The notes under the pieces were generated by a model. That model worked only from the letters and a program-made list of their open reading frames with translations, made no database searches and had not been told where the DNA came from. Of a stretch of DNA of 13,933 nt, positions 1 to 12,727 are shown one piece after another. Every line of letters begins with the position of its first letter. Positions within the stretch are counted from its first letter, which is position 1. Position numbers and translations under genes: made by a program. The stretch comes from an uncultured Myxococcales bacterium (lineage in GTDB: Bacteria > Myxococcota > UBA4151), in assembly GCA_964013405.1 (NCBI GenBank), contig CAXGWI010000096.1, forward strand, positions 1 through 13,933, written 5' to 3'.

Positions 1-425
1 CTGACCCCCGAACCCTCGGTTCCCATGGCTGCCGACAAGGCGTTCAAAGCCGCCGACTTCTTCACCCTTGCCTGGGCTGCAGCCTTCCGCTTTGCAGCAG
101 CCTCGGGATGCTCACAGGAGAAACAGTCATCGGGACCGTTGCAGACGGTGTAGGGACTGCCTGCTTTGTGTTCCACCCCAAGCTCATCCAGCGTGGTGAA
201 ATAGTCGTACTCGGACATCCAAGACTTCTGCGCCCAGAAAATTTCCTTGAGTTGCGCTTTAGCCTTCTCCTGAGCTGCTTTACAGCGTTGCTGCTCCGCC
301 GCTGCTGAGGGCTTGGCCGGTGTCGTTACCGGCACCTCCGCCGCCGCCTCGCTCCCAGGCGCTGTGCTGGCACAGCCATTCAAAGTCAAAGCCAGTAAGC
401 CAATCGTCCAGTAGGGCCTTGCCAC
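1..425 (-). CDS. Lipoprotein with a type IV pilin-like head domain (3' end beyond the window); paralog of 8442..8966
   Basis: Not in the ORF track; translated by hand. GTG at 425-423, with GGAGG about 10 nt upstream. The frame is open to the window edge (141 codons): MARPYWTIGLLALTLNGC|ASTAPGSEAAAEVPVTTPAKPSAAAEQQRCKAAQEKAKAQLKEIFWAQKSWMSEYDYFTTLDELGVEHKAGSPYTVCNGPDDCFSCEHPEAAAKRKAAAQARVKKSAALNALSAAMGTEGSGV... Lipobox-like LNGC (Cys18), then an Ala/Pro/Thr linker. Confidence 0.85.
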   Translation of the reverse strand, partial: MARPYWTIGLLALTLNGCASTAPGSEAAAEVPVTTPAKPSAAAEQQRCKAAQEKAKAQLKEIFWAQKSWMSEYDYFTTLDELGVEHKAGSPYTVCNGPDDCFSCEHPEAAAKRKAAAQARVKKSAALNALSAAMGTEGSGV

Positions 426-2802: not shown

Positions 2803-5800
2803 GTGGCTCGAAACCGCCTGACGCTGCTTCTGTGCCTCAGCCTCGTGATGGCGGCTGCGGCCCCCGCAACACCGGTGACCGAGAGCGTGCAGCCCCAGGG
2901 CGAGCAGCCCAAAGACGACAAGAAGAAAGCCTGGGATGTGGAACAGCCCGAGGTGACAAGCCGGGATCAGACCATCGACGTCAAAACCGGCACGTGGATG
3001 AGCCTGGACCTCAGCCCCGATGGCAAGAAGATCGTCTTTGATCTCCTCGGTGACCTCTACGAAATCCCCATCGAAGGCGGTGAAGCCAAAGCCCTCACCA
3101 GCGGTCTGGCCTGGGATATGCAGCCCACCTACAGCCCGGACGGTCGCTGGCTGGCCTTCACCAGTGACCGAGGCGGCGGCGACAACATCTGGGTCATGCC
3201 AGCAAAAGGGGGCGAGGCCAAAGCCGTCACTAGAGAGGATTATCGGCTCCTCAACAGCCCGGCCTGGAGCCCGGACAGCGAGTACATCGTCGCCCGAAAA
3301 CACTTCACCTCAAGGCGAAGTATCGGCTCCGGCGAGATGTGGCTCTACCACCGCAGCGGCGGCAAGGGCCTGCAAATGACGAAGAAGAAGACCCAGCAAA
3401 AAGACGAGGGGGAGCCGGTCTTCTCCCCCGATGGTCGCTACCTCTACTACAGCCGGGATGTCTCCCCCGGCGCCACCTTCCGCTACGGCAAGAACTCGGC
3501 CGAAGGCATCTACGCCATCGAGCGCTTGGATCGGGAAACCGGCCGGGTGGTCCGAGTTGCCGGCGGCCCCGGGGGCGCAGCCCGCCCCACCCCATCCCCC
3601 GATGGCAAATGGTTAGCCTTCATTCGCCGGGACGAGGGCCGCAGCGGCCTGGTGGTCAAAGATCTGAGAAACGGCGCCGAACGACTGCTGATGCACCCCA
3701 TCGAGCGGGACCTGCAAGAAACCTGGGCCATCCACGGGGTCTATCCCACCTTCCGTTGGACCCGGGACGCCAAGTCCCTGATCCTGTGGTCACATGGCAC
3801 CCTGCACCGGGTGCAACTGCGGGATGGCAAACGTACAGAGATCCCCTTTCACGTCCGCAGTACCCGCCGCATGCTCAAGCCCCTGCGCCAGCCGATCGAG
3901 GTGGCTCCCAAAACCCTAGCCACCCGTATGCTCCGCTGGGTCCGCGTCGCTGCTGACGGCAAGCACGCGGTCTACCAGGCCCTCGGTCACCTCTACATCC
4001 AAGCCCTGCCGGGCGGCAAAGCCCGTCGGCTCACCCAACAAAACGACCACTGGGAGCTATACCCCTCCTTCTCAGCCGATGGGCGATTCGTCGTCTACAG
4101 CACCTGGGATGACGAGGAATTCGGCAGCATCAGAAAGGTCTCGGTCCGGGGCGGCAAAGGGCGGGTGATCAGCCGAAAACCGGGCCACTACATCACGCCC
4201 GTGCTTTCGCCCGACGGTCGCCATGTGGTCTACCGACGGGTGGGTGGCGGCTGGCTCACCAGCCCCCGGTGGACCGACGAACCAGGCCTTTTTGCCCTGC
4301 CCGTGGAGCGCAAAGGACCGGAAACCCGCATCAGCCACGGGGGAACCGACCCCCACTTCGGCCAAGCAAATGACCGGGTCTACTTCCAGGAAACCACCCA
4401 CAGCGGCGACAAGGAGAGCCGGGAGTTACGCAGCGCCCGGCTCGATGGCCACGAGCTCCGCCACCACGTGGCAAGCGCCGAGGCGATGGGCTTTCGGGTC
4501 TCGCCCAACGAACGGTGGATCGCTTGGCAAGAAGGCTACCATGTCTGGGTCAGCCCCTTCGTCCGCACCGGTCGCACCTGGCGTCTGGGCCCCAAAGAAG
4601 AAGGTTTACCCCGGCACCGAGTCTCAAAGGACTCGGGCTACAACATGGCCTGGTCCGGGGACAGCCAACGCTTGCACTGGAACCTGGGCCCAGAACTCTT
4701 CACCCAGCCGGTCGGCGAGGTCTTCGCCGAGGGCCAAGAGGGTGAGAAGGAGCAAGCGAAGCCCCAAGGCCAAAGCCTGGGCTTCAGCTTCCACCATGAC
4801 CAACCCCGGGGCGGAATCGCCCTCGTCGGCGCCCGCCTCGTCACCATGGAAGGTGATCAGGTCATCGAAGATGGCACCCTGGTGATCGAAGGCAATCGGA
4901 TAGAAGCCATCGGGCCCCGCCTGACGACCCCCGTCCCCAAAGGCTTCAAGGTGATCGAAGGCAAAGGTCTGACCGCCATCCCAGGCATCGTCGACGTCCA
5001 CGACCACGGTGCCCAGGCCGAGTCGGGCATCACGCCGGAGCGCAACTGGCAGCACGATGCCACCCTCGCCTTTGGCGTGACCACCATCCACGACCCCTCC
5101 AACCACTCCCAGAGTATCTTCGCCGTCCGAGAGCTGATCCAGGCTGGCAAGATGACCGGGCCCCGCACCTTCTCGACCGGCACCATCCTCTATGGCGCAG
5201 AAGGGGCTTTCCGCTCCCGGGTCAACAGCCTCGACGATGCCCGCCAACACCTGCGCCGGATGCAGGCCATGGGGGCATTCTCGGTCAAAAGCTACAACCA
5301 ACCCCGGCGCAACCAACGGCAGCAGGTGCTGCAAGCAGCCCGGGAGTTGGGCATGATGGTGGTCCCCGAAGGCGGCGCCCTGTTTCAGCACAATATGTCC
5401 ATGATCGCCGATGGGCACACAGGGGTGGAACATGCCATTCCCCTGGCGAATGCTTACGATGATGTCCTGCAGTTCTGGGCCCCCTCGAAGGTGGGCTACA
5501 CCCCCACCCTGAACGTGGCCTATGGCGGCTTGGGCGCGGAGTATTACTGGTACCAAGAAAGCGAGGTCTACGCCCACGAACGGCTGCGGCGCTTCGTGCC
5601 CAAGCGGGTGCTGAACGCCCGGGCCCGCCGCCCAGCCAAAGCCCCCCATCACGAGTGGAACCACATCGATGTCGCTCGCTTCGCCAAGCGCATCATCGAC
5701 GCCGGTGGAAAAGTCCAAATCGGTGGGCACGGGCAGCGGGAAGGGCTCGGTTCCCACTGGGAGATCTGGGCCCTGGTGCAAGGGGGCTTCACGAACCACG

Positions 5801-6102
5801 AGGCCCTGCGGAGCGCCACGCTCCACGGTGCTTGGTACCTGGGCCTGGATGGGGATTTGGGCTCCCTCAAGGTGGGTAAACTCGCCGATGTTGCGGTGAT
5901 CGCCGGCAACCCCTTGGCCGACATCCGCCAGTCGGAAAACCTACGCTATGTGATCGCCAATGGCCGGCTCTTTGAAGCCGCAACGATGGCGCAACTCCAC
6001 CCCGACCCGACCCCCGCGCCCAGTTATTTCTTCACCCAAGACGGCGTGAACACCGATGCCAGCGTGCGCGGCCTCGACGGCTGCCTGGGCTGTGGGCGCT
6101 GA
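2803..6102 (+). CDS. Secreted amidohydrolase-family protein with N-terminal TolB-like/PD40 beta-propeller repeats
   Basis: GTG start with AAGGAGGA at 2789-2796, and a signal peptide (LTLLLCLSLVMAAAAPA). Repeated P.[WFY]SPDG[RK] motifs over the N-terminal ~650 aa. C-terminal amidohydrolase domain with PGIVDVHDH (H733/H735), GVTTIHDP, EH, and GSLKVGKLADVAVIAGNPL. Confidence 0.93.
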   Translation: MARNRLTLLLCLSLVMAAAAPATPVTESVQPQGEQPKDDKKKAWDVEQPEVTSRDQTIDVKTGTWMSLDLSPDGKKIVFDLLGDLYEIPIEGGEAKALTSGLAWDMQPTYSPDGRWLAFTSDRGGGDNIWVMPAKGGEAKAVTREDYRLLNSPAWSPDSEYIVARKHFTSRRSIGSGEMWLYHRSGGKGLQMTKKKTQQKDEGEPVFSPDGRYLYYSRDVSPGATFRYGKNSAEGIYAIERLDRETGRVVRVAGGPGGAARPTPSPDGKWLAFIRRDEGRSGLVVKDLRNGAERLLMHPIERDLQETWAIHGVYPTFRWTRDAKSLILWSHGTLHRVQLRDGKRTEIPFHVRSTRRMLKPLRQPIEVAPKTLATRMLRWVRVAADGKHAVYQALGHLYIQALPGGKARRLTQQNDHWELYPSFSADGRFVVYSTWDDEEFGSIRKVSVRGGKGRVISRKPGHYITPVLSPDGRHVVYRRVGGGWLTSPRWTDEPGLFALPVERKGPETRISHGGTDPHFGQANDRVYFQETTHSGDKESRELRSARLDGHELRHHVASAEAMGFRVSPNERWIAWQEGYHVWVSPFVRTGRTWRLGPKEEGLPRHRVSKDSGYNMAWSGDSQRLHWNLGPELFTQPVGEVFAEGQEGEKEQAKPQGQSLGFSFHHDQPRGGIALVGARLVTMEGDQVIEDGTLVIEGNRIEAIGPRLTTPVPKGFKVIEGKGLTAIPGIVDVHDHGAQAESGITPERNWQHDATLAFGVTTIHDPSNHSQSIFAVRELIQAGKMTGPRTFSTGTILYGAEGAFRSRVNSLDDARQHLRRMQAMGAFSVKSYNQPRRNQRQQVLQAARELGMMVVPEGGALFQHNMSMIADGHTGVEHAIPLANAYDDVLQFWAPSKVGYTPTLNVAYGGLGAEYYWYQESEVYAHERLRRFVPKRVLNARARRPAKAPHHEWNHIDVARFAKRIIDAGGKVQIGGHGQREGLGSHWEIWALVQGGFTNHEALRSATLHGAWYLGLDGDLGSLKVGKLADVAVIAGNPLADIRQSENLRYVIANGRLFEAATMAQLHPDPTPAPSYFFTQDGVNTDASVRGLDGCLGCGR

Positions 6103-6249
6103 TCGCCACGGGCGCGGCTGCAACGATCTCGTCAACGGATGGCTGCGAACGCTCTGGTTGCTCACAGCCATCAAGTCCACGGGCCCCCTATACGCCGGTT
6201 CTCCTTTGGCATATTGTAGGTTTGTTCATTTCTGTTCGGAGGAACCCGC

Positions 6250-6489
6250 ATGGCTTTGCTAGGCATCTTTCTAATCGGTTTCGGATTGGTAGACGTCCTC
6301 GGAAGTTGGGGCGGCTTTGATCTTTGGCGCGGCGCGATCGGTTGGCGCAGTATGCCGGACGCACTTTGGCAGTTCTCGGGCTACGTTGAGTTGGGAATCG
6401 GCTACATGCTGCTGCAGATGGGCGGCGGCGGCGATGAAGCGGAGGAGGCTCCGGCTGAGTCTGAGGTCGGTGGCGAAGAAGAAACCTAG
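6250..6489 (+). CDS. Small membrane protein with an acidic C-terminal tail, function unknown
   Basis: Strong RBS GGAGGA at 6238-6243, two hydrophobic segments, and a Gly/Glu-rich tail (GGGGDEAEEAPAESEVGGEEET). Confidence 0.7.
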   Translation: MALLGIFLIGFGLVDVLGSWGGFDLWRGAIGWRSMPDALWQFSGYVELGIGYMLLQMGGGGDEAEEAPAESEVGGEEET

Positions 6490-6505
6490 TCGATAGGAAG
6501 TCCCG

Positions 6506-7285
6506 CTACGGTCTCATCGCCTCCGGCTGTTCTAGCGCGCTGGCTTCCCTGTCTTTCGCCTCCTTGACAAAGGCACCGACCAGGGTCCGCCAATGGGCCT
6601 TGCCAGCCTCACTCAGCTGAGTGGAGGCGGCCAAACAAGCTGTTAAGCCCTCCGTGGTGGCAGCCATGCGCTGGGCCAGTTGATCCGGCGCTGCCTTCAT
6701 CAATTCCGACAGCAAGGGCGTCATGCGCTGACGGCAGGCACTGTCCGCGGGGCGGTCGTCTTCCGTGAGTGCGGGCGCCATGGTTAAGGGATAGCGATTC
6801 CCGAACGGCTCGTTATCTAATGCACAGCCCCCTTGGATGGCGCCGCTTGCCGCCACATAACGCCAACTACAGCGGGGTTGCGCCCCCGCACCGGCGACGT
6901 GGGCGAGACGATTTTGACTGCCGGCGGCTCGGGCTTTCACCTGGCTCAAGTCCACCGGTACCCGGGGGCTGCGCCGGGAGGCACCACGGAGCTCTGCTGG
7001 CCCGATAAGGAGCAGATCCATCGGTCCCTCTTGGGCCTGAATCACCACTTGGACTCTCCCCCGAGCGAAGGCCTGACTCAACTGTCGCTGGGCCACTTGA
7101 GCTGCCGAATCCTCCAGCTCCAAGGCGATCACTACATCCAATCGCTTCTTGCCGTTTTGAACAGCAATCCGGCCCGGAATCAGTTGGGTCGGCTGCAGAC
7201 CCATGGGTCCGGCCACCGCCATGAGGAGCGGGTGCTTTGCAGCCCCAGCGAGAAGAGAGACCGGGGCTCGTAACAGGGCCGGCAT
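6506..7285 (-). CDS. Hypothetical protein; probably the C-terminal part of the 7301..8452 lipoprotein
   Basis: Same reading frame as 7301..8452, separated only by TAA 7303-7301 and five sense codons (AGPWL). No clear RBS or signal peptide; four Cys residues. Confidence 0.6.
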   Translation of the reverse strand: MPALLRAPVSLLAGAAKHPLLMAVAGPMGLQPTQLIPGRIAVQNGKKRLDVVIALELEDSAAQVAQRQLSQAFARGRVQVVIQAQEGPMDLLLIGPAELRGASRRSPRVPVDLSQVKARAAGSQNRLAHVAGAGAQPRCSWRYVAASGAIQGGCALDNEPFGNRYPLTMAPALTEDDRPADSACRQRMTPLLSELMKAAPDQLAQRMAATTEGLTACLAASTQLSEAGKAHWRTLVGAFVKEAKDREASALEQPEAMRP

Positions 7286-7300
7286 GAGCCAAGGACCTGC

Positions 7301-8452
7301 TTATCGGATGCGACCCATCAACTCCCGGGGGTCGGTGATGCTCCCCAGCCACGGGGCCGCCTCTGCCGGCATCAAGAGATCCTTGAGGGCGAACTCAACG
7401 GAGACCACCTGACGAGAGCCCGGCTCCAACAAGGCCCCCTGACTCCCCTTCTGAGCTTGATCCCAAAGCCCTTGGGCGTAGGGCCTCATGCGCAGCCCCG
7501 CCCCCATCACTTCCAAGTTCGGTCCCATGGCGGCCAACACGACGCTGTCCACCTCGGCGGGCCCGTCTCTGAAGCTGCGTATCGCCATCAAGATATCCAA
7601 CGAATTGCCGATGAACTCCCCCCGGACATCCGCGGGCACTCGGGCTAGAGCTGCCAGGGTGTTCTTCACCCCCATCAACTCCCCGTAGCGATTGAGGGAC
7701 GGCATGTGCAGGGACAGCCCAAAGCCCACCTGGGGATCACGCAACGCGGTGTAACGGGTTTGATCGACCTGCTTGGGCCCAGCGATCCATGCGGCCGTAC
7801 CAACCGGGGCTTGCTGGGCTTCCTCATCGGCCCCCAAGGTTTGATAGAAGGACATCACCACGTGACCTTCCTTCGCCACCATCCCAAACCACCAGGTTCC
7901 GAACTCCCGGTGCTTGATGACTTCACCCCCCGCCCGAGTCTCGAGGAAGGGCCCCAGAAGACCTCGGAGCTCCCCCATCAGCGCCTCTGGGTTGCCGCTG
8001 GGGAGCACCGCCCGGTGCCCTATGCCTTCGCCGGCTAAATCGTCACCACTGCGCAAGGCCGCCAGCACTTCTAAATCCTGGGCCCGGCTTTGGAAAAAGG
8101 CGAAGGCGGTGGGATGATTGGGGTCCCACCACGACAGAAAGTGGCCGGTATACACATACAGCATGCCCGCCAATGATTCGGCTTTTTTCAGGGGCTCAAC
8201 GGACCCAGCCTCCAACATCCGGCGGAGGGCCCGGGGGGCTTGCTGCTTGGGTAATTCTTTGCGGAGGTGCTCAAGGCGGTCGAGGGCCGCAAAATAACGC
8301 TCCGGGCGAAGTTGAACCACCAGCGCGGCGTCACCCCCCAGAAGATCGAGGGCTGTGACCGGCTTGGCCGGCTCCAGCGCAACACCAGAGGTCGTGGCAC
8401 AGGCCATCCCGAAGAGGCCAAAACAGAGTGTCGCTATCCATCTACTCTTCAC
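7301..8452 (-). CDS. Putative lipoprotein of unknown function (N-terminal part of a possibly split ~648-codon gene)
   Basis: GTG start overlaps the stop of the upstream gene by 11 bp (8442-8452). MKSRWIATLCFGLFGMAC|ATT has a basic n-region, a hydrophobic h-region and Cys18, though the lipobox is slightly non-canonical. Confidence 0.7.
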   Translation of the reverse strand: MKSRWIATLCFGLFGMACATTSGVALEPAKPVTALDLLGGDAALVVQLRPERYFAALDRLEHLRKELPKQQAPRALRRMLEAGSVEPLKKAESLAGMLYVYTGHFLSWWDPNHPTAFAFFQSRAQDLEVLAALRSGDDLAGEGIGHRAVLPSGNPEALMGELRGLLGPFLETRAGGEVIKHREFGTWWFGMVAKEGHVVMSFYQTLGADEEAQQAPVGTAAWIAGPKQVDQTRYTALRDPQVGFGLSLHMPSLNRYGELMGVKNTLAALARVPADVRGEFIGNSLDILMAIRSFRDGPAEVDSVVLAAMGPNLEVMGAGLRMRPYAQGLWDQAQKGSQGALLEPGSRQVVSVEFALKDLLMPAEAAPWLGSITDPRELMGRIR

Positions 8453-8966
8453 AGTCGTTCACCTCGTTCACCATGTTATTGGCATCGTCGATGGACCACA
8501 CGTCGAGGGTGTCATCGTCGTCCAGATTGCCGGTGCCGCAGATGCGGAAGAAAGGACGCCCATCCTCCCCTTCGCCGTAGCCAATCGGCTGTTTGCAGGC
8601 GATCAGCTTGGGCCCTACAGGACCACAGGCGCTGGTCTCGCCGTTCAAGCCTTTCGCCGTGCACGGCCGACAATCCACGGCGTTGTTGCAGATCGTGTAG
8701 CGCCCGCCCGGTTCCGGCGCGTAGCCGACATGGTCGAAGCCCGTGTAGAGGTCGTATTCGGACATGTAACTCTTTTGTGCCTGAAAGGCCCTCTTGAGTT
8801 CCCGCTGGATCCACTCTTGAGACTGGGTGCAGGCCATCTCCTTGCGCCACTTCACAGCCGCCTCGGGCAGCTTCATCTGTGGGCTTCGCTCGGGCGGAGG
8901 CGGTGGTGCGGCTTGCGGGGTCGCACAGGCGGCGAGGCCCCCTAAGATCATCGCTCGAATCAACAT
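8442..8966 (-). CDS. Cys-rich lipoprotein with a type IVa pilin-like globular head domain
   Basis: Start moved from 9005 to ATG 8966 (perfect AAGGAGG at 8979-8973, 6-nt spacing); 174 aa. Canonical lipobox LAAC (Cys14) and a Pro-rich linker. Then ELKRAFQAQKSYMSEYDLY...VGYAPEPGGRY...GNLDDDDTLDVWSID...NDC, which matches myxobacterial PilA head motifs as I recall them. Confidence 0.8.
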   Translation of the reverse strand: MLIRAMILGGLAACATPQAAPPPPPERSPQMKLPEAAVKWRKEMACTQSQEWIQRELKRAFQAQKSYMSEYDLYTGFDHVGYAPEPGGRYTICNNAVDCRPCTAKGLNGETSACGPVGPKLIACKQPIGYGEGEDGRPFFRICGTGNLDDDDTLDVWSIDDANNMVNEVNDCEE

Positions 8967-9103
8967 CAAGCCCCTCCTTGGTTGCGGGGCTGCGACCATG
9001 CACACAATAGCTCAGGGAAGAAAGCCCCCTTGCCAGCGTCGCCCCAAAGGCTGCACATCCATGTCCTGGAGGGTTTCTTCCGCCAAGAGAGGGATACAGC
9101 CCC

Positions 9104-10678
9104 ATGACAAGGTGCCGAACACGCCGCGGCCTCGGGTCCATCTGCTTCGTGCTTGCGACAGTCGGCTATGCCCCACCCGCTGCGGCCGAAGACCTGCCCG
9201 CCTTGCTGCTGCTCACCATCGAGGAGATCGGCAAGCGGGTCGACGATGCCAGCTATTATGTACGCATCATGAAGCAGGAGGCACCGCCCCCTGCGGACGG
9301 GGGTCCAGTCGGTTCGACGGCCCCCAAAACCAGCGCTGGCCAAGGTCGCCCCGCCGCCAACAGCCGCAGCTTCCTGAAAGACTTCCAAGCCATGCGCCGC
9401 CGCTTTGACCGGGACGGGCAAAAGATGCGGCGGCGCTTCGAAGCGGATCAACGCCAAATGGCCCAAGCCTTCAAGGAGCGCCTACGGGAGCAGCGGCGCG
9501 CCTTCCGCAGCACCTATGCCCGTTGGCGGTCCCATCGACCCCGCTACCGCAAAGAGATCGATACCTTTAAGCGCAACACCATCGACCTCGACCGCTTCAA
9601 GAGACAGGACCGAGCCGAACAGAACGCTCGCCGAAAGGCCCAAGAAGCTGAAGATGCCGAGGTCAAAAAGCGCAGCGAAGAGGTCCTTGAGCGCCGCCGA
9701 AAGGCGCGAGAAGCCGAGCGAAAAGCAGCGGAGGCGAAAGCCCGGAGGGAGGAAGCACGACTCCGACGGGAGCTGGCGAAGAAGCGAGACCAAGAAGCCC
9801 GGGCCCGACTGGAAGCCCACCGCCGCAAACAAGAAGAAGCTCGCCGCCAGAAGGAACGGGAAGAAGCCAAGCTTCGGGCCGAAGAGGAGCGACGCCTTAA
9901 AGAGTCCCTCAAGAAGTACGAAGAGGAAAAGCGCCGTAAGGCCCAGCCCAAAGCCCCCAAGTGGACCTGGAAAGTGGTCAAGGGGAGCCTGGAGCAACCG
10001 GTTCGACATCAAGCCGCTCGACCGACCTGCGCCGCCTTTGCCGGCATTCGGGCCATCGAGATCAAACGGGCGCAAAATGCGAGCCCTGTGGATCTCTCCG
10101 AGCAGTACTTTTATTGGTCCAGCAAGCCGGACTGTCAGCGCAAACGCTGTCGAAGCTGGGGCTCCTGGAGCCTCTTTGGGCTGCGTAATTCGAAGGCATC
10201 AGCCCGCCCGGACATCCCCCTCGAAAGCGACTGTCCTTACAACCCTCGAAGCCGACGAAACAACCAGACCCAAATCCCCCTTCGGGCCACCTGTCACCGC
10301 AAGGGCAAAGCCAAGGTCGTGGACTACAAAGTGGTCCGCAGCGTCGATGAGCTCCCGGCCCTGCTCGATCAAGACCACCCCATCATCGGTGGCTTCACCC
10401 TCAGTCCCGCCTTCTACAAAACCAAGGCGCTGCTCACCGTCGCTGATGACGCCCGGGTGGGTCGCACCGACCGGCATGCCGGCGGACACGGTTTCAACCT
10501 GATCGGCTATTTGGAATTGCCCGAGAAGATGCACGCGACGGAAGGGAAACGCTGCTTCATCGCCGCCAACAGTTGGGGACTGGGTTGGGGCGCTGGGGGC
10601 CACAGTTGCATCAGCGAAGCCTGGCTCAAAAAGCACAAGGGCGGCAACGGGTTCATCGCCGTCACTGGGGTTCGCTAA
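9104..10678 (+). CDS. Secreted papain-like cysteine peptidase (family C1) with a long charged helical N-terminal region
   Basis: Signal peptide ending AAA|E. Oxyanion Gln303 and catalytic Cys309 (VRHQAARPTCAAFA), DLSEQYFY, His462 (GGHGFNLIGY) and Asn489 (FIAANSWGLGWG). E/R/K-rich stretch at about aa 165-280. Confidence 0.88.
   Translation: MTRCRTRRGLGSICFVLATVGYAPPAAAEDLPALLLLTIEEIGKRVDDASYYVRIMKQEAPPPADGGPVGSTAPKTSAGQGRPAANSRSFLKDFQAMRRRFDRDGQKMRRRFEADQRQMAQAFKERLREQRRAFRSTYARWRSHRPRYRKEIDTFKRNTIDLDRFKRQDRAEQNARRKAQEAEDAEVKKRSEEVLERRRKAREAERKAAEAKARREEARLRRELAKKRDQEARARLEAHRRKQEEARRQKEREEAKLRAEEERRLKESLKKYEEEKRRKAQPKAPKWTWKVVKGSLEQPVRHQAARPTCAAFAGIRAIEIKRAQNASPVDLSEQYFYWSSKPDCQRKRCRSWGSWSLFGLRNSKASARPDIPLESDCPYNPRSRRNNQTQIPLRATCHRKGKAKVVDYKVVRSVDELPALLDQDHPIIGGFTLSPAFYKTKALLTVADDARVGRTDRHAGGHGFNLIGYLELPEKMHATEGKRCFIAANSWGLGWGAGGHSCISEAWLKKHKGGNGFIAVTGVR
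9392..9460 (+). repeat. Imperfect 33-bp (11-aa) tandem repeat in the protease N-terminal region
   Basis: ATG at 9392, 9425 and 9458: MRRRFDRDGQK / MRRRFEADQRQ / M. Confidence 0.6.
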
Positions 10679-11518: not shown

Positions 11519-12727
11519 CTAGTGCCAGAGGCCCAGACCGACGCCCACATTTCGGTAGGCCGAGGCCACATCGGCATGGGCACTGAGCTTCCAATCCCAC
11601 AGCAGATGGACCCGTAGATCCGCGCCCGCGGTTCCATGCCAACGCCCGGCACCATGGCGCGAGTCCCGAAAGCGACTGGGCTCGAAATAGCTGCCCGCCC
11701 GCAAGACCAAGCGATTGTTAAGAACCTCAGCCTCGAGACCCAGCCGGGGACTCAGCACCGGTCGCTCCCCCGCCCGCTGGGCCTCCCCTTCAAGAAAAGC
11801 CAGCGTACCAAAACCATCGGGAGTGCCCTGGGTGATCAAAAACTCCACACTGATCAGCCCATAACGGCGATCGACCGAACCATCCTTGGCCCCGGAAAAA
11901 CGCTCTGCCCCCGAGGCAAGATTGAAGCTCCGTTGGCCCCAAAACCACGTCCCGCCCACACTCAACTGTCCAGGAATCATCAGCGCATCGGGCAATTCAT
12001 CCTGAAGAAACCGGGCCCGTTCGCCCCCCAACTGAAAGGCCAAAATCCGACTGCGGTAACTCAGTCCCACGCGGTAGTTGGACCCCACCGGGCTCAACAA
12101 CAGGCCCATCTGCCCGCCGGCACCGCGGATCGTGACCATATCCACCTCTTCATGCCAGGCACAGGAACTCACGCCGAGGTCGCAATCATAAATACCGGCC
12201 CGGGCGAGGTTCAGGTTCATGCCCACATGCAAGCCACCCCGAAACAGTTGCCGTGCCAGGCCCAGGCCAAAGACCTGCTGCCGAAACCGAACCGGTTCCA
12301 GGCCTCCGTTTCTCGCCCGTGTCAGAGCATAGCGATACATTTGGGACTCCACTCGAAGCCCCAGGCCCCAGGGTCCCCACTTCAACTGATAGGCGCCATC
12401 GTGGAGTTCAAACCCACGGGTGCTGCGACCGGATAAATCCAGTTCGAGACCATCTCGCCGAAAATCCTGCATGGTCGTCAGCGCCCAGTCGTAATCGAAG
12501 ACCAGTTCATTGGCCCAGGCATAACGGGTGCTGATCGCCGCCGGATTGCCCGCCTGCCCCTCGGCGCCCTCTGCCAAGCCCACCGAGGCACCGCCCATGC
12601 CCACCACACGACTTGAACCCAGAACAGGTCCCACATAAAAATCCAAGTTCGTGGGCGATTCAGGACGACCGCCGCTGGCAAAGACCAGCGCGCCGGCAAA
12701 CCAAAGCCCCGACAGGCTGGTCAACAT
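11519..12727 (-). CDS. Outer-membrane beta-barrel protein, FadL/OmpP1/PorV-like
   Basis: N-terminal signal peptide. SSRVVGMGGASVGLAEGAEGQAGNPAAI matches the R..GMGGA......D.....NPA hatch motif. Alternating amphipathic beta-strands (e.g. RLVLRAGSYFEP) and an aromatic C-terminus (GVGLGLWH). The start overlaps the upstream stop (ATGTTGA). Confidence 0.72.
   Translation of the reverse strand: MLTSLSGLWFAGALVFASGGRPESPTNLDFYVGPVLGSSRVVGMGGASVGLAEGAEGQAGNPAAISTRYAWANELVFDYDWALTTMQDFRRDGLELDLSGRSTRGFELHDGAYQLKWGPWGLGLRVESQMYRYALTRARNGGLEPVRFRQQVFGLGLARQLFRGGLHVGMNLNLARAGIYDCDLGVSSCAWHEEVDMVTIRGAGGQMGLLLSPVGSNYRVGLSYRSRILAFQLGGERARFLQDELPDALMIPGQLSVGGTWFWGQRSFNLASGAERFSGAKDGSVDRRYGLISVEFLITQGTPDGFGTLAFLEGEAQRAGERPVLSPRLGLEAEVLNNRLVLRAGSYFEPSRFRDSRHGAGRWHGTAGADLRVHLLWDWKLSAHADVASAYRNVGVGLGLWH

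Follow-up and report, generated by a model that had tools for sequence, protein, structure and literature searches.

We analysed a stretch of 13,933 nucleotides from an uncultured marine Myxococcales bacterium (contig CAXGWI010000096.1; the whole stretch is called the window below) and, within it, a gene at positions 8442–8966 of the reverse strand, P0001, whose 174-amino-acid product joins a lipoprotein-type N-terminus to a pilin head. This lipobox and pilin-head architecture is real and recurrent, a variant of the known pilin head, and its function is predicted. In our preferred reading, to which we assign a probability of about 0.45, P0001 is a pilA-derived head that is lipid-anchored instead of entering the pilus and that likely serves as a tethered adhesion (ligand-binding) module. 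Taken by its parts, a lipid-anchored, non-polymerising architecture is highly probable, and an adhesion role, once that architecture is granted, is about an even call.

The translation contains everything that an earlier note on this DNA had read from it: a lipobox (LAAC), a Pro-rich tether, a helix, the motif GYAPEPGGRY in the head, a C-terminal motif (GNxDxD..D.W..NDC) and eight cysteines besides the lipobox Cys14 (residues 46, 93, 99, 102, 114, 124, 143 and 172). The gene and its parts are as follows; dN/dS is the ratio of non-synonymous to synonymous rates, and L020 and L021 are the two orthologous loci.

8442..8966, reverse strand: P0001, gene for the lipobox and pilin-head protein (sequence and structure matches; dN/dS 0.11-0.13)
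8973..8979, reverse strand: Shine-Dalgarno sequence AAGGAGG, 6 nt 5' of the P0001 ATG (AAGGAG and spacing retained in L020 and L021)
8925..8966, reverse strand: lipobox LAAC with Cys14, at the end of a predicted type II (lipoprotein) signal peptide of residues 1-13
8865..8924, reverse strand: Pro-rich tether, residues 15-34, replacing the hydrophobic alpha1-N (8 Pro in 20 residues; low hydropathy)
8754..8864, reverse strand: long helix of the predicted model, residues 35-71, alpha1-C equivalent (most variable part in orthologues)
8445..8630, reverse strand: C-terminal beta-sheet and D-region equivalent of the model, residues 113-174, acidic (most conserved part)

Pilin head and lipoprotein signal of P0001

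The likeness of the P0001 head to the type IVa pilin head lies above chance and is confirmed. Among PDB sequences, the sole match up to an E value of 10 was Myxococcus xanthus PilA (8tj2, E 6.7e-6), and the alignment contains the PilA motifs that the earlier note had named. The genome's own pilA matched at E 3e-26, with 38% identity over 133 amino acids, and the NCBIfam family NF041775 matched at E 3.9e-6 with 27 bits, far short of its curated cut-off of 400 bits. The predicted P0001 model, in which the alpha1-C helix packs on an antiparallel sheet as in a type IVa pilin globular head, also had M. xanthus PilA as its best structure match, in line with the fold that had been proposed. Cys143 and Cys172 align with Cys132 and Cys162 of the host PilA, the predicted D-region disulfide, and all eight head cysteines align with cysteines of host-family PilA. 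The eight cysteines behind the earlier suggestion of a disulfide-stabilised protein are thus present, and the idea that they are a new adaptation was rejected, all being inherited from the host PilA.

The N-terminus is not that of a pilin, as the earlier note had stated. A class III signal peptide (G|F-x-x-x-E) is absent from P0001 and its orthologues, and a genome-wide scan for this motif returned four open reading frames (ORFs), none of them on the contig of P0001. Hydropathy before the head peaks at -0.57, versus 2.85-3.2 in the 15 prepilins listed, so that no hydrophobic alpha1-N is present. The start at the ATG of 8966 is supported by the orthologues: Shine-Dalgarno spacing is the same in both loci, and each carries an in-frame stop just upstream, which rules out longer starts at 8999 or 9005.

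Lipidation at Cys14 is probable, judging from the signal sequence and its conservation. LAAC fits the lipobox consensus L-[AST]-[GA]-C as given in the part of the source covered (PMC3222651), orthologues carry the variants LVAC and ILAC, and Cys14 is kept in 10/10 distinct orthologue sequences (eight of these from one 90% cluster), which agrees with the expectation that homologues would keep a lipobox. Cys14 and the Ala at -1 are invariant despite near-saturated synonymous divergence, and this cysteine has no counterpart among the eight PilA cysteines. The n-region contains Arg4, separated from Cys14 by nine uncharged residues, a run that recurs in 12 of the 90 lipobox-type starts of the same genome; these 90 were found among 443 starts anchored by a Shine-Dalgarno sequence, and 7 of 10,590 shuffled N-termini passed the lipobox test. 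Very short signal peptides, with Cys at 13-17, are frequent among the lipobox-type starts of this genome. The host has genes for Lgt, LspA and LolA.

Origin, conservation and recurrence

The genome encodes four homologues of this type: pilA, P0001, a paralogue at window positions 3-425 (P0002) and a 733-aa lipoprotein on contig C26. The canonical pilA lies on contig C2 beside pilD-like and pilS/pilR-like genes (labels assigned by reading the ORFs), and PilQ and PilB are also encoded. In an unrooted IQ-TREE tree of 48 rows that we chose from 176, with 133 columns, the two lipobox clades (those of P0001 and P0002) grouped at 100/98 and were sister to the host-family PilA at 96/87. Prepilins are the ancestral state, so that the direction would be from pilA to the lipobox heads. 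On this tree, the P0001 head descends from the organism's own pilA and not from a distant Myxococcus-like pilin, with which the earlier note had compared it, and the simplest history would be a pilA duplication, replacement of the N-terminus and then a second duplication. At the DNA level, the best match between P0001 and pilA covers 45 bp, at 73%.

P0001 is under purifying selection: dN/dS was 0.114 and 0.134 against L020 and L021 (dS near saturation) and 0.122 between these two. Its conservation is inverted relative to PilA: a drifting helix contrasts with a fixed C-terminal sheet. Among 10 orthologue sequences, 14/26 helix columns and 9/61 C-terminal columns were variable (eight of the ten fall in one 90% cluster, and the column counts are not independent), versus 4/26 and 26/61 in five host-family PilAs; four sequences of the sister clade (11/26 and 13/61) followed the trend of the orthologues. 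Between L020 and L021, 9.5/12.5 non-synonymous changes fell in the helix (dN/dS 0.67). The usual pilin pattern, according to the portion of the source covered, is a conserved N-terminus and a variable C-terminus (PMC12691611). We consider the inversion the best indirect evidence for a helix released from filament packing and for a C-terminal part with a fixed task.

Close relatives of P0001 are few. A search of 1.84 billion representatives gave 42 matches at E 0.001, one of them at 1e-30; the family profile found seven proteins among 8,000 candidates, and 2 of 88 pattern matches were metagenome loci of the family. Homologues in metagenome-assembled genomes (MAGs) of Myxococcales or Myxococcota are labelled 'hypothetical protein'. 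Five other genomes of the host family matched solely through pilA and one other head.

More widely, PF14245 matches 70/151 genomes of the phylum. For our census, 118 of the 134 PF14245 places were fetched, the other 16 being own-genome places or already in the set; with own-genome and metagenome loci dropped, it scored 145 ORFs in 70 genomes, 14 of them relabelled by eye; PF14245 misses P0001 itself, so that the census undercounts. It comprised 90 prepilins, 31 transmembrane-anchored heads, 6 lipoproteins with a body and a residual alpha1-N, 3 lipoproteins without alpha1-N, 3 other secreted proteins, 2 ambiguous and 10 truncated ORFs. Non-prepilin PilA heads occurred in 31 of the 70 genomes with a scored locus, the majority of them transmembrane-anchored.

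Five named Corallococcus species have a tandem-head, Pro-tethered lipoprotein (5/18 loci, with ordinary pilins at 12/18). Lipoproteins of this Corallococcus type (L128-L132, L076, L110) have two tandem pilin-head-like domains without the usual C-terminal motif, and their neighbourhoods are variable. Lipoprotein pilin heads without alpha1-N, by their sequences, arose more than once in the phylum, including in cultured Corallococcus. A single clade for such heads was rejected (approximately unbiased test, p = 0.0002), the tested group having been defined after the first tree had been seen.

Body-fused forms also occur. The 733-aa protein on contig C26 (L127 649-2847, reverse strand, genome G000) ends in a PilA head with a residual alpha1-N and belongs to a widespread set of lipoprotein-pilin fusions, 500-730 aa long, whose bodies are of at least two unrelated kinds. 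At L009, L019, L045, L063, L073 and L077, lipoproteins of ~200-225 aa, in three families, combine a body of 75-85 aa, a hydrophobic alpha1-N and a PilA head. A wider, tentative proposal, which we think rather unlikely as a whole, is that Myxococcota repeatedly and independently turned the head of the major pilin into a surface adhesin that is anchored by lipid and independent of the pilus; its forms would be the single head of this clade, the tandem heads of Corallococcus and the fusions to a body.

Genomic neighbourhood and proposed role

Two further features of the window are related to P0001 by overlap or by homology.

6506..8452, reverse strand: gene for a large lipoprotein (FGMAC), candidate partner, overlapping P0001 by 11 bp (one 639-aa ORF in orthologues)
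3..425, reverse strand: P0002, second lipobox (LNGC) and pilin-head paralogue, truncated where the contig ends (its clade is sister to that of P0001)

The overlap and gene order of P0001 and the 639-aa lipoprotein are repeated in 2/2 orthologous loci, and in two MAG records the head and partner genes carry neighbouring locus tags. The sister clade adds circumstantial evidence: its head P0047 and P0054, a partner with 38% identity, were each taken from a Logan contig of 7225 bases, probably one and the same. In the window, an in-frame TAA (7301-7303, reverse strand) splits the 639-aa gene. The same truncation is found in three database records, an intact 99%-identical allele exists, and contigs from 2/4 marine runs cover the site without a stop. 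Neither Pfam nor NCBIfam has a family for the protein, its AlphaFold model (predicted local distance difference test 39.6) is unusable, and the ESM Atlas matched it only to lipoprotein clusters without a name and to one DUF2138 cluster. Profile comparison did not support homology to the fused bodies (probability 1.9% and 19.5%, N-terminus only).

Full-length relatives of P0002 are P0056, P0057, P0007 and P0047. The P0002 head has an Ala/Lys-rich insertion of ~40 aa, and L021 has an unrelated lipoprotein gene in the place of P0002. A PD40 and amidohydrolase gene (2803-6102, forward strand) has no counterpart in L020 and L021, which are otherwise syntenic and in which an SDR gene abuts the large lipoprotein gene. 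Divergent from P0001 lies a papain-family (C1) peptidase gene (9104-10678, forward strand) whose product combines an N-terminus resembling a signal with a long, charged region of coiled-coil-like sequence; it is syntenic in L020, and L021 ends short of its position. A 402-aa secreted protein without a Pfam family (11519-12727, reverse strand), kept in L020, has C-terminal aromatic residues in a pattern that hints at an outer-membrane barrel. No pil genes lie near P0001, a promoter scan of positions 6050-9200 found no sites, terminators there were at chance level, and tblastn against a phage collection gave no match. The 19 runs listed included no RNA holder of the sequence, a result without bearing on expression.

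In the preferred reading, P0001 would be exported by Sec and lipidated at Cys14 by Lgt and LspA, and Lol would then move it to the outer membrane, possibly to the surface (position +2 is neither Asp nor Lys, and position +7 is Ala in P0001 as in the P0004 cluster). PilD would not process it, and assembly into a PilB/PilC-dependent filament would be absent because alpha1-N is missing and the helix has drifted; this drift, part of the inverted conservation, lends indirect support to the non-polymerising protein that the earlier note had envisaged. A monomeric head would be displayed on a flexible tether, would bind its ligand with the conserved sheet and loops of its C-terminal part, and may act jointly with the co-encoded large lipoprotein. 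The isolated M. xanthus PilA head is described as binding exopolysaccharide (EPS) and chitosan weakly in the part of the source covered (PMC12691611), which makes an anchored head a plausible adhesin; surface density would stand in for filament avidity.

Several caveats and contrary observations go with this reading, among them the dependence of the column counts given above. Alongside the PDB match and the NF041775 match below cut-off, the Pfam search that had been proposed earlier returned no match up to E 1 for P0001, which does not reach the PF14245 cut-off (P0047 and P0057 had no Pfam match either). The P0001 structure was predicted from an alignment that included true pilins. Trp146, which binds EPS in M. 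xanthus PilA, maps near Lys125 in a loop of low-confidence alignment (Tyr130, near that region, is clade-invariant and a candidate only), and equivalents of the interface positions K48, E53, D55 and R73, as listed in the part of the source covered (bioRxiv 2023.07.22.550172), are kept in P0001. Position +7, Ala in P0001, is Val in the orthologue P0003 and is Gly throughout the sister clade sequences, and the +7 sorting rule derives from a distant family. Neither P0001 nor its 639-aa neighbour was found in the other five genomes of the family, which are 59-93% complete, and we therefore regard P0001 as accessory. A strict PROSITE-like lipoprotein rule rejects P0001 (by one residue), P0003 and P0004, and an Ala-x-Ala-like site of small residues follows Cys14.

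The main rival to the adhesin is partner binding, in which P0001 and the overlapping lipoprotein would form a complex of two lipoproteins in the envelope, the split counterpart of the fused body and head, and the conserved face of P0001 would be a protein interface. The conserved overlap and order, the adjacent locus tags, the Logan pair, the joint absence from the five family genomes and the existence of fused 500-730-aa forms, one in the same genome, all fit such a complex, which we nevertheless think unlikely: the partner showed no homology to either fused body, and its gene is interrupted in the assembly while the head gene is intact. Lower still we place a pilin mimic that would face the periplasm and modulate either the machine of the type IVa pilus (PilP/PilQ/PilC) or the pool of pilin. 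The head does come from the host PilA, the machine is encoded, and the part of PMC6060248 covered cites a precedent in P. stutzeri, where transformation is antagonised by a second pilin. P0001, however, is unlinked to pil genes, its filament-packing helix has drifted, and family members with near-identical PilA are without P0001 in the genomes searched. Pilin sensing, moreover, probably relies on alpha1-N, which is missing here.

It is also improbable that P0001 escapes lipidation and that signal peptidase I, cutting after the Ala residues past Cys14, frees a soluble head. The short h-region, the failed strict rule, the small residues after Cys14 and the 3/145 scored ORFs that are secreted-type heads without a lipobox would suit this; yet Cys14 and the Ala at -1 are invariant with no PilA cysteine counterpart, sister-clade P0007 and P0057 satisfy the strict rule, and equally short signals are common in the genome. 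With the rule relaxed by one residue, P0001, P0003 and P0004 pass. Of the three roles named in the earlier note (adhesin, pilus modulator, decoy), a decoy absorbing pilus-binding phages or predators is the weakest because the C-terminus has diverged from the host PilA yet is conserved in orthologues. An accessory gene of patchy distribution, with non-synonymous changes between L020 and L021 concentrated in the helix, could be so explained, but the C-terminal region, 30% identical to host PilA and the most conserved part, is the opposite of a tracking mimic, and PADLOC assigned 0/5 nearby proteins to a defence family; we hold this role to be very improbable. A silent (pilS-like) pilin cassette or decaying duplicate is largely refuted: P0001 does lack the 5' part of pilA and its neighbour has a premature stop in the assembly, but P0001 carries a ribosome-binding site and a signal of its own, shows a dN/dS of ~0.12 and has, as its best pilA DNA match, the short stretch given above.

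Type IV pilins are defined, and found by annotation tools, through their N-terminus, so that head-only proteins are filed as hypothetical. If lipidated, P0001 and its kin would be natural head-only pilins that separate head binding from filament function, and would bear on pilin-exopolysaccharide recognition in myxobacteria, an open question; cultured Corallococcus, with its convergent form, allows the idea of a lipid-anchored head to be tested directly. Should the repeated conversion to adhesins hold true, it would define an undescribed class of envelope proteins, with pilin-type recognition of glycans or prey without a filament.

Comparison with known systems

A literature search, mostly of titles and abstracts, found no description of the lipobox and pilin-head architecture or of large lipoprotein-PilA head fusions. 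A survey of myxobacterial PilA homologues mentions no lipoprotein forms in the main-text parts covered, and its supplementary homologue lists may hold such proteins (PMC6060248). The remark in the earlier note that it knew of no described family with this architecture agrees with that search, although, given the frequency of non-prepilin PilA heads among the scored genomes, P0001 is not a one-off.

Type V pili of Bacteroidia also have subunits made as lipoprotein precursors, but their fold is unrelated and they assemble by strand exchange; none was among the 50 structure matches listed for the P0001 model. Large lipoproteins ending in a PilA head (of the C26, P0008 and P0010 type) have lipobox and head in one chain, as P0001 does. 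Unlike P0001, they include a body of 75-560 aa and a residual hydrophobic alpha1-N, and they lie on separate tree branches. The transmembrane-anchored PilA heads (DUF4190 or zinc-ribbon and PF14245) share with P0001 the lack of a normal prepilin leader but retain a hydrophobic segment before the head and have a protein anchor, where P0001 has a predicted lipid anchor. A second M. xanthus PilA with an extended N-terminus, noted in the part of PMC6060248 covered, probably belongs with these.

Compared with the Myxococcota type IVa major pilin PilA (8TJ2; PF14245; NF041775), P0001 is without the class III signal, Glu5 and the hydrophobic alpha1-N; it has a lipobox and a Pro tether instead, scores below both family cut-offs and shows inverted conservation. 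Its sequence thus resembles a detached PilA head, and the lack of a class III signal and of alpha1-N places it outside the type IV pilins. Also alike in form is the engineered PilACt (M. xanthus PilA residues 32-208), according to the part of the source covered likewise a head without alpha1-N, with nearly the same domain boundary, and itself soluble and EPS-binding (PMC12691611). PilACt is a laboratory construct without an anchor, and P0001, which has no clear Trp146 equivalent, would be a natural, lipid-anchored head of nearly the same extent.
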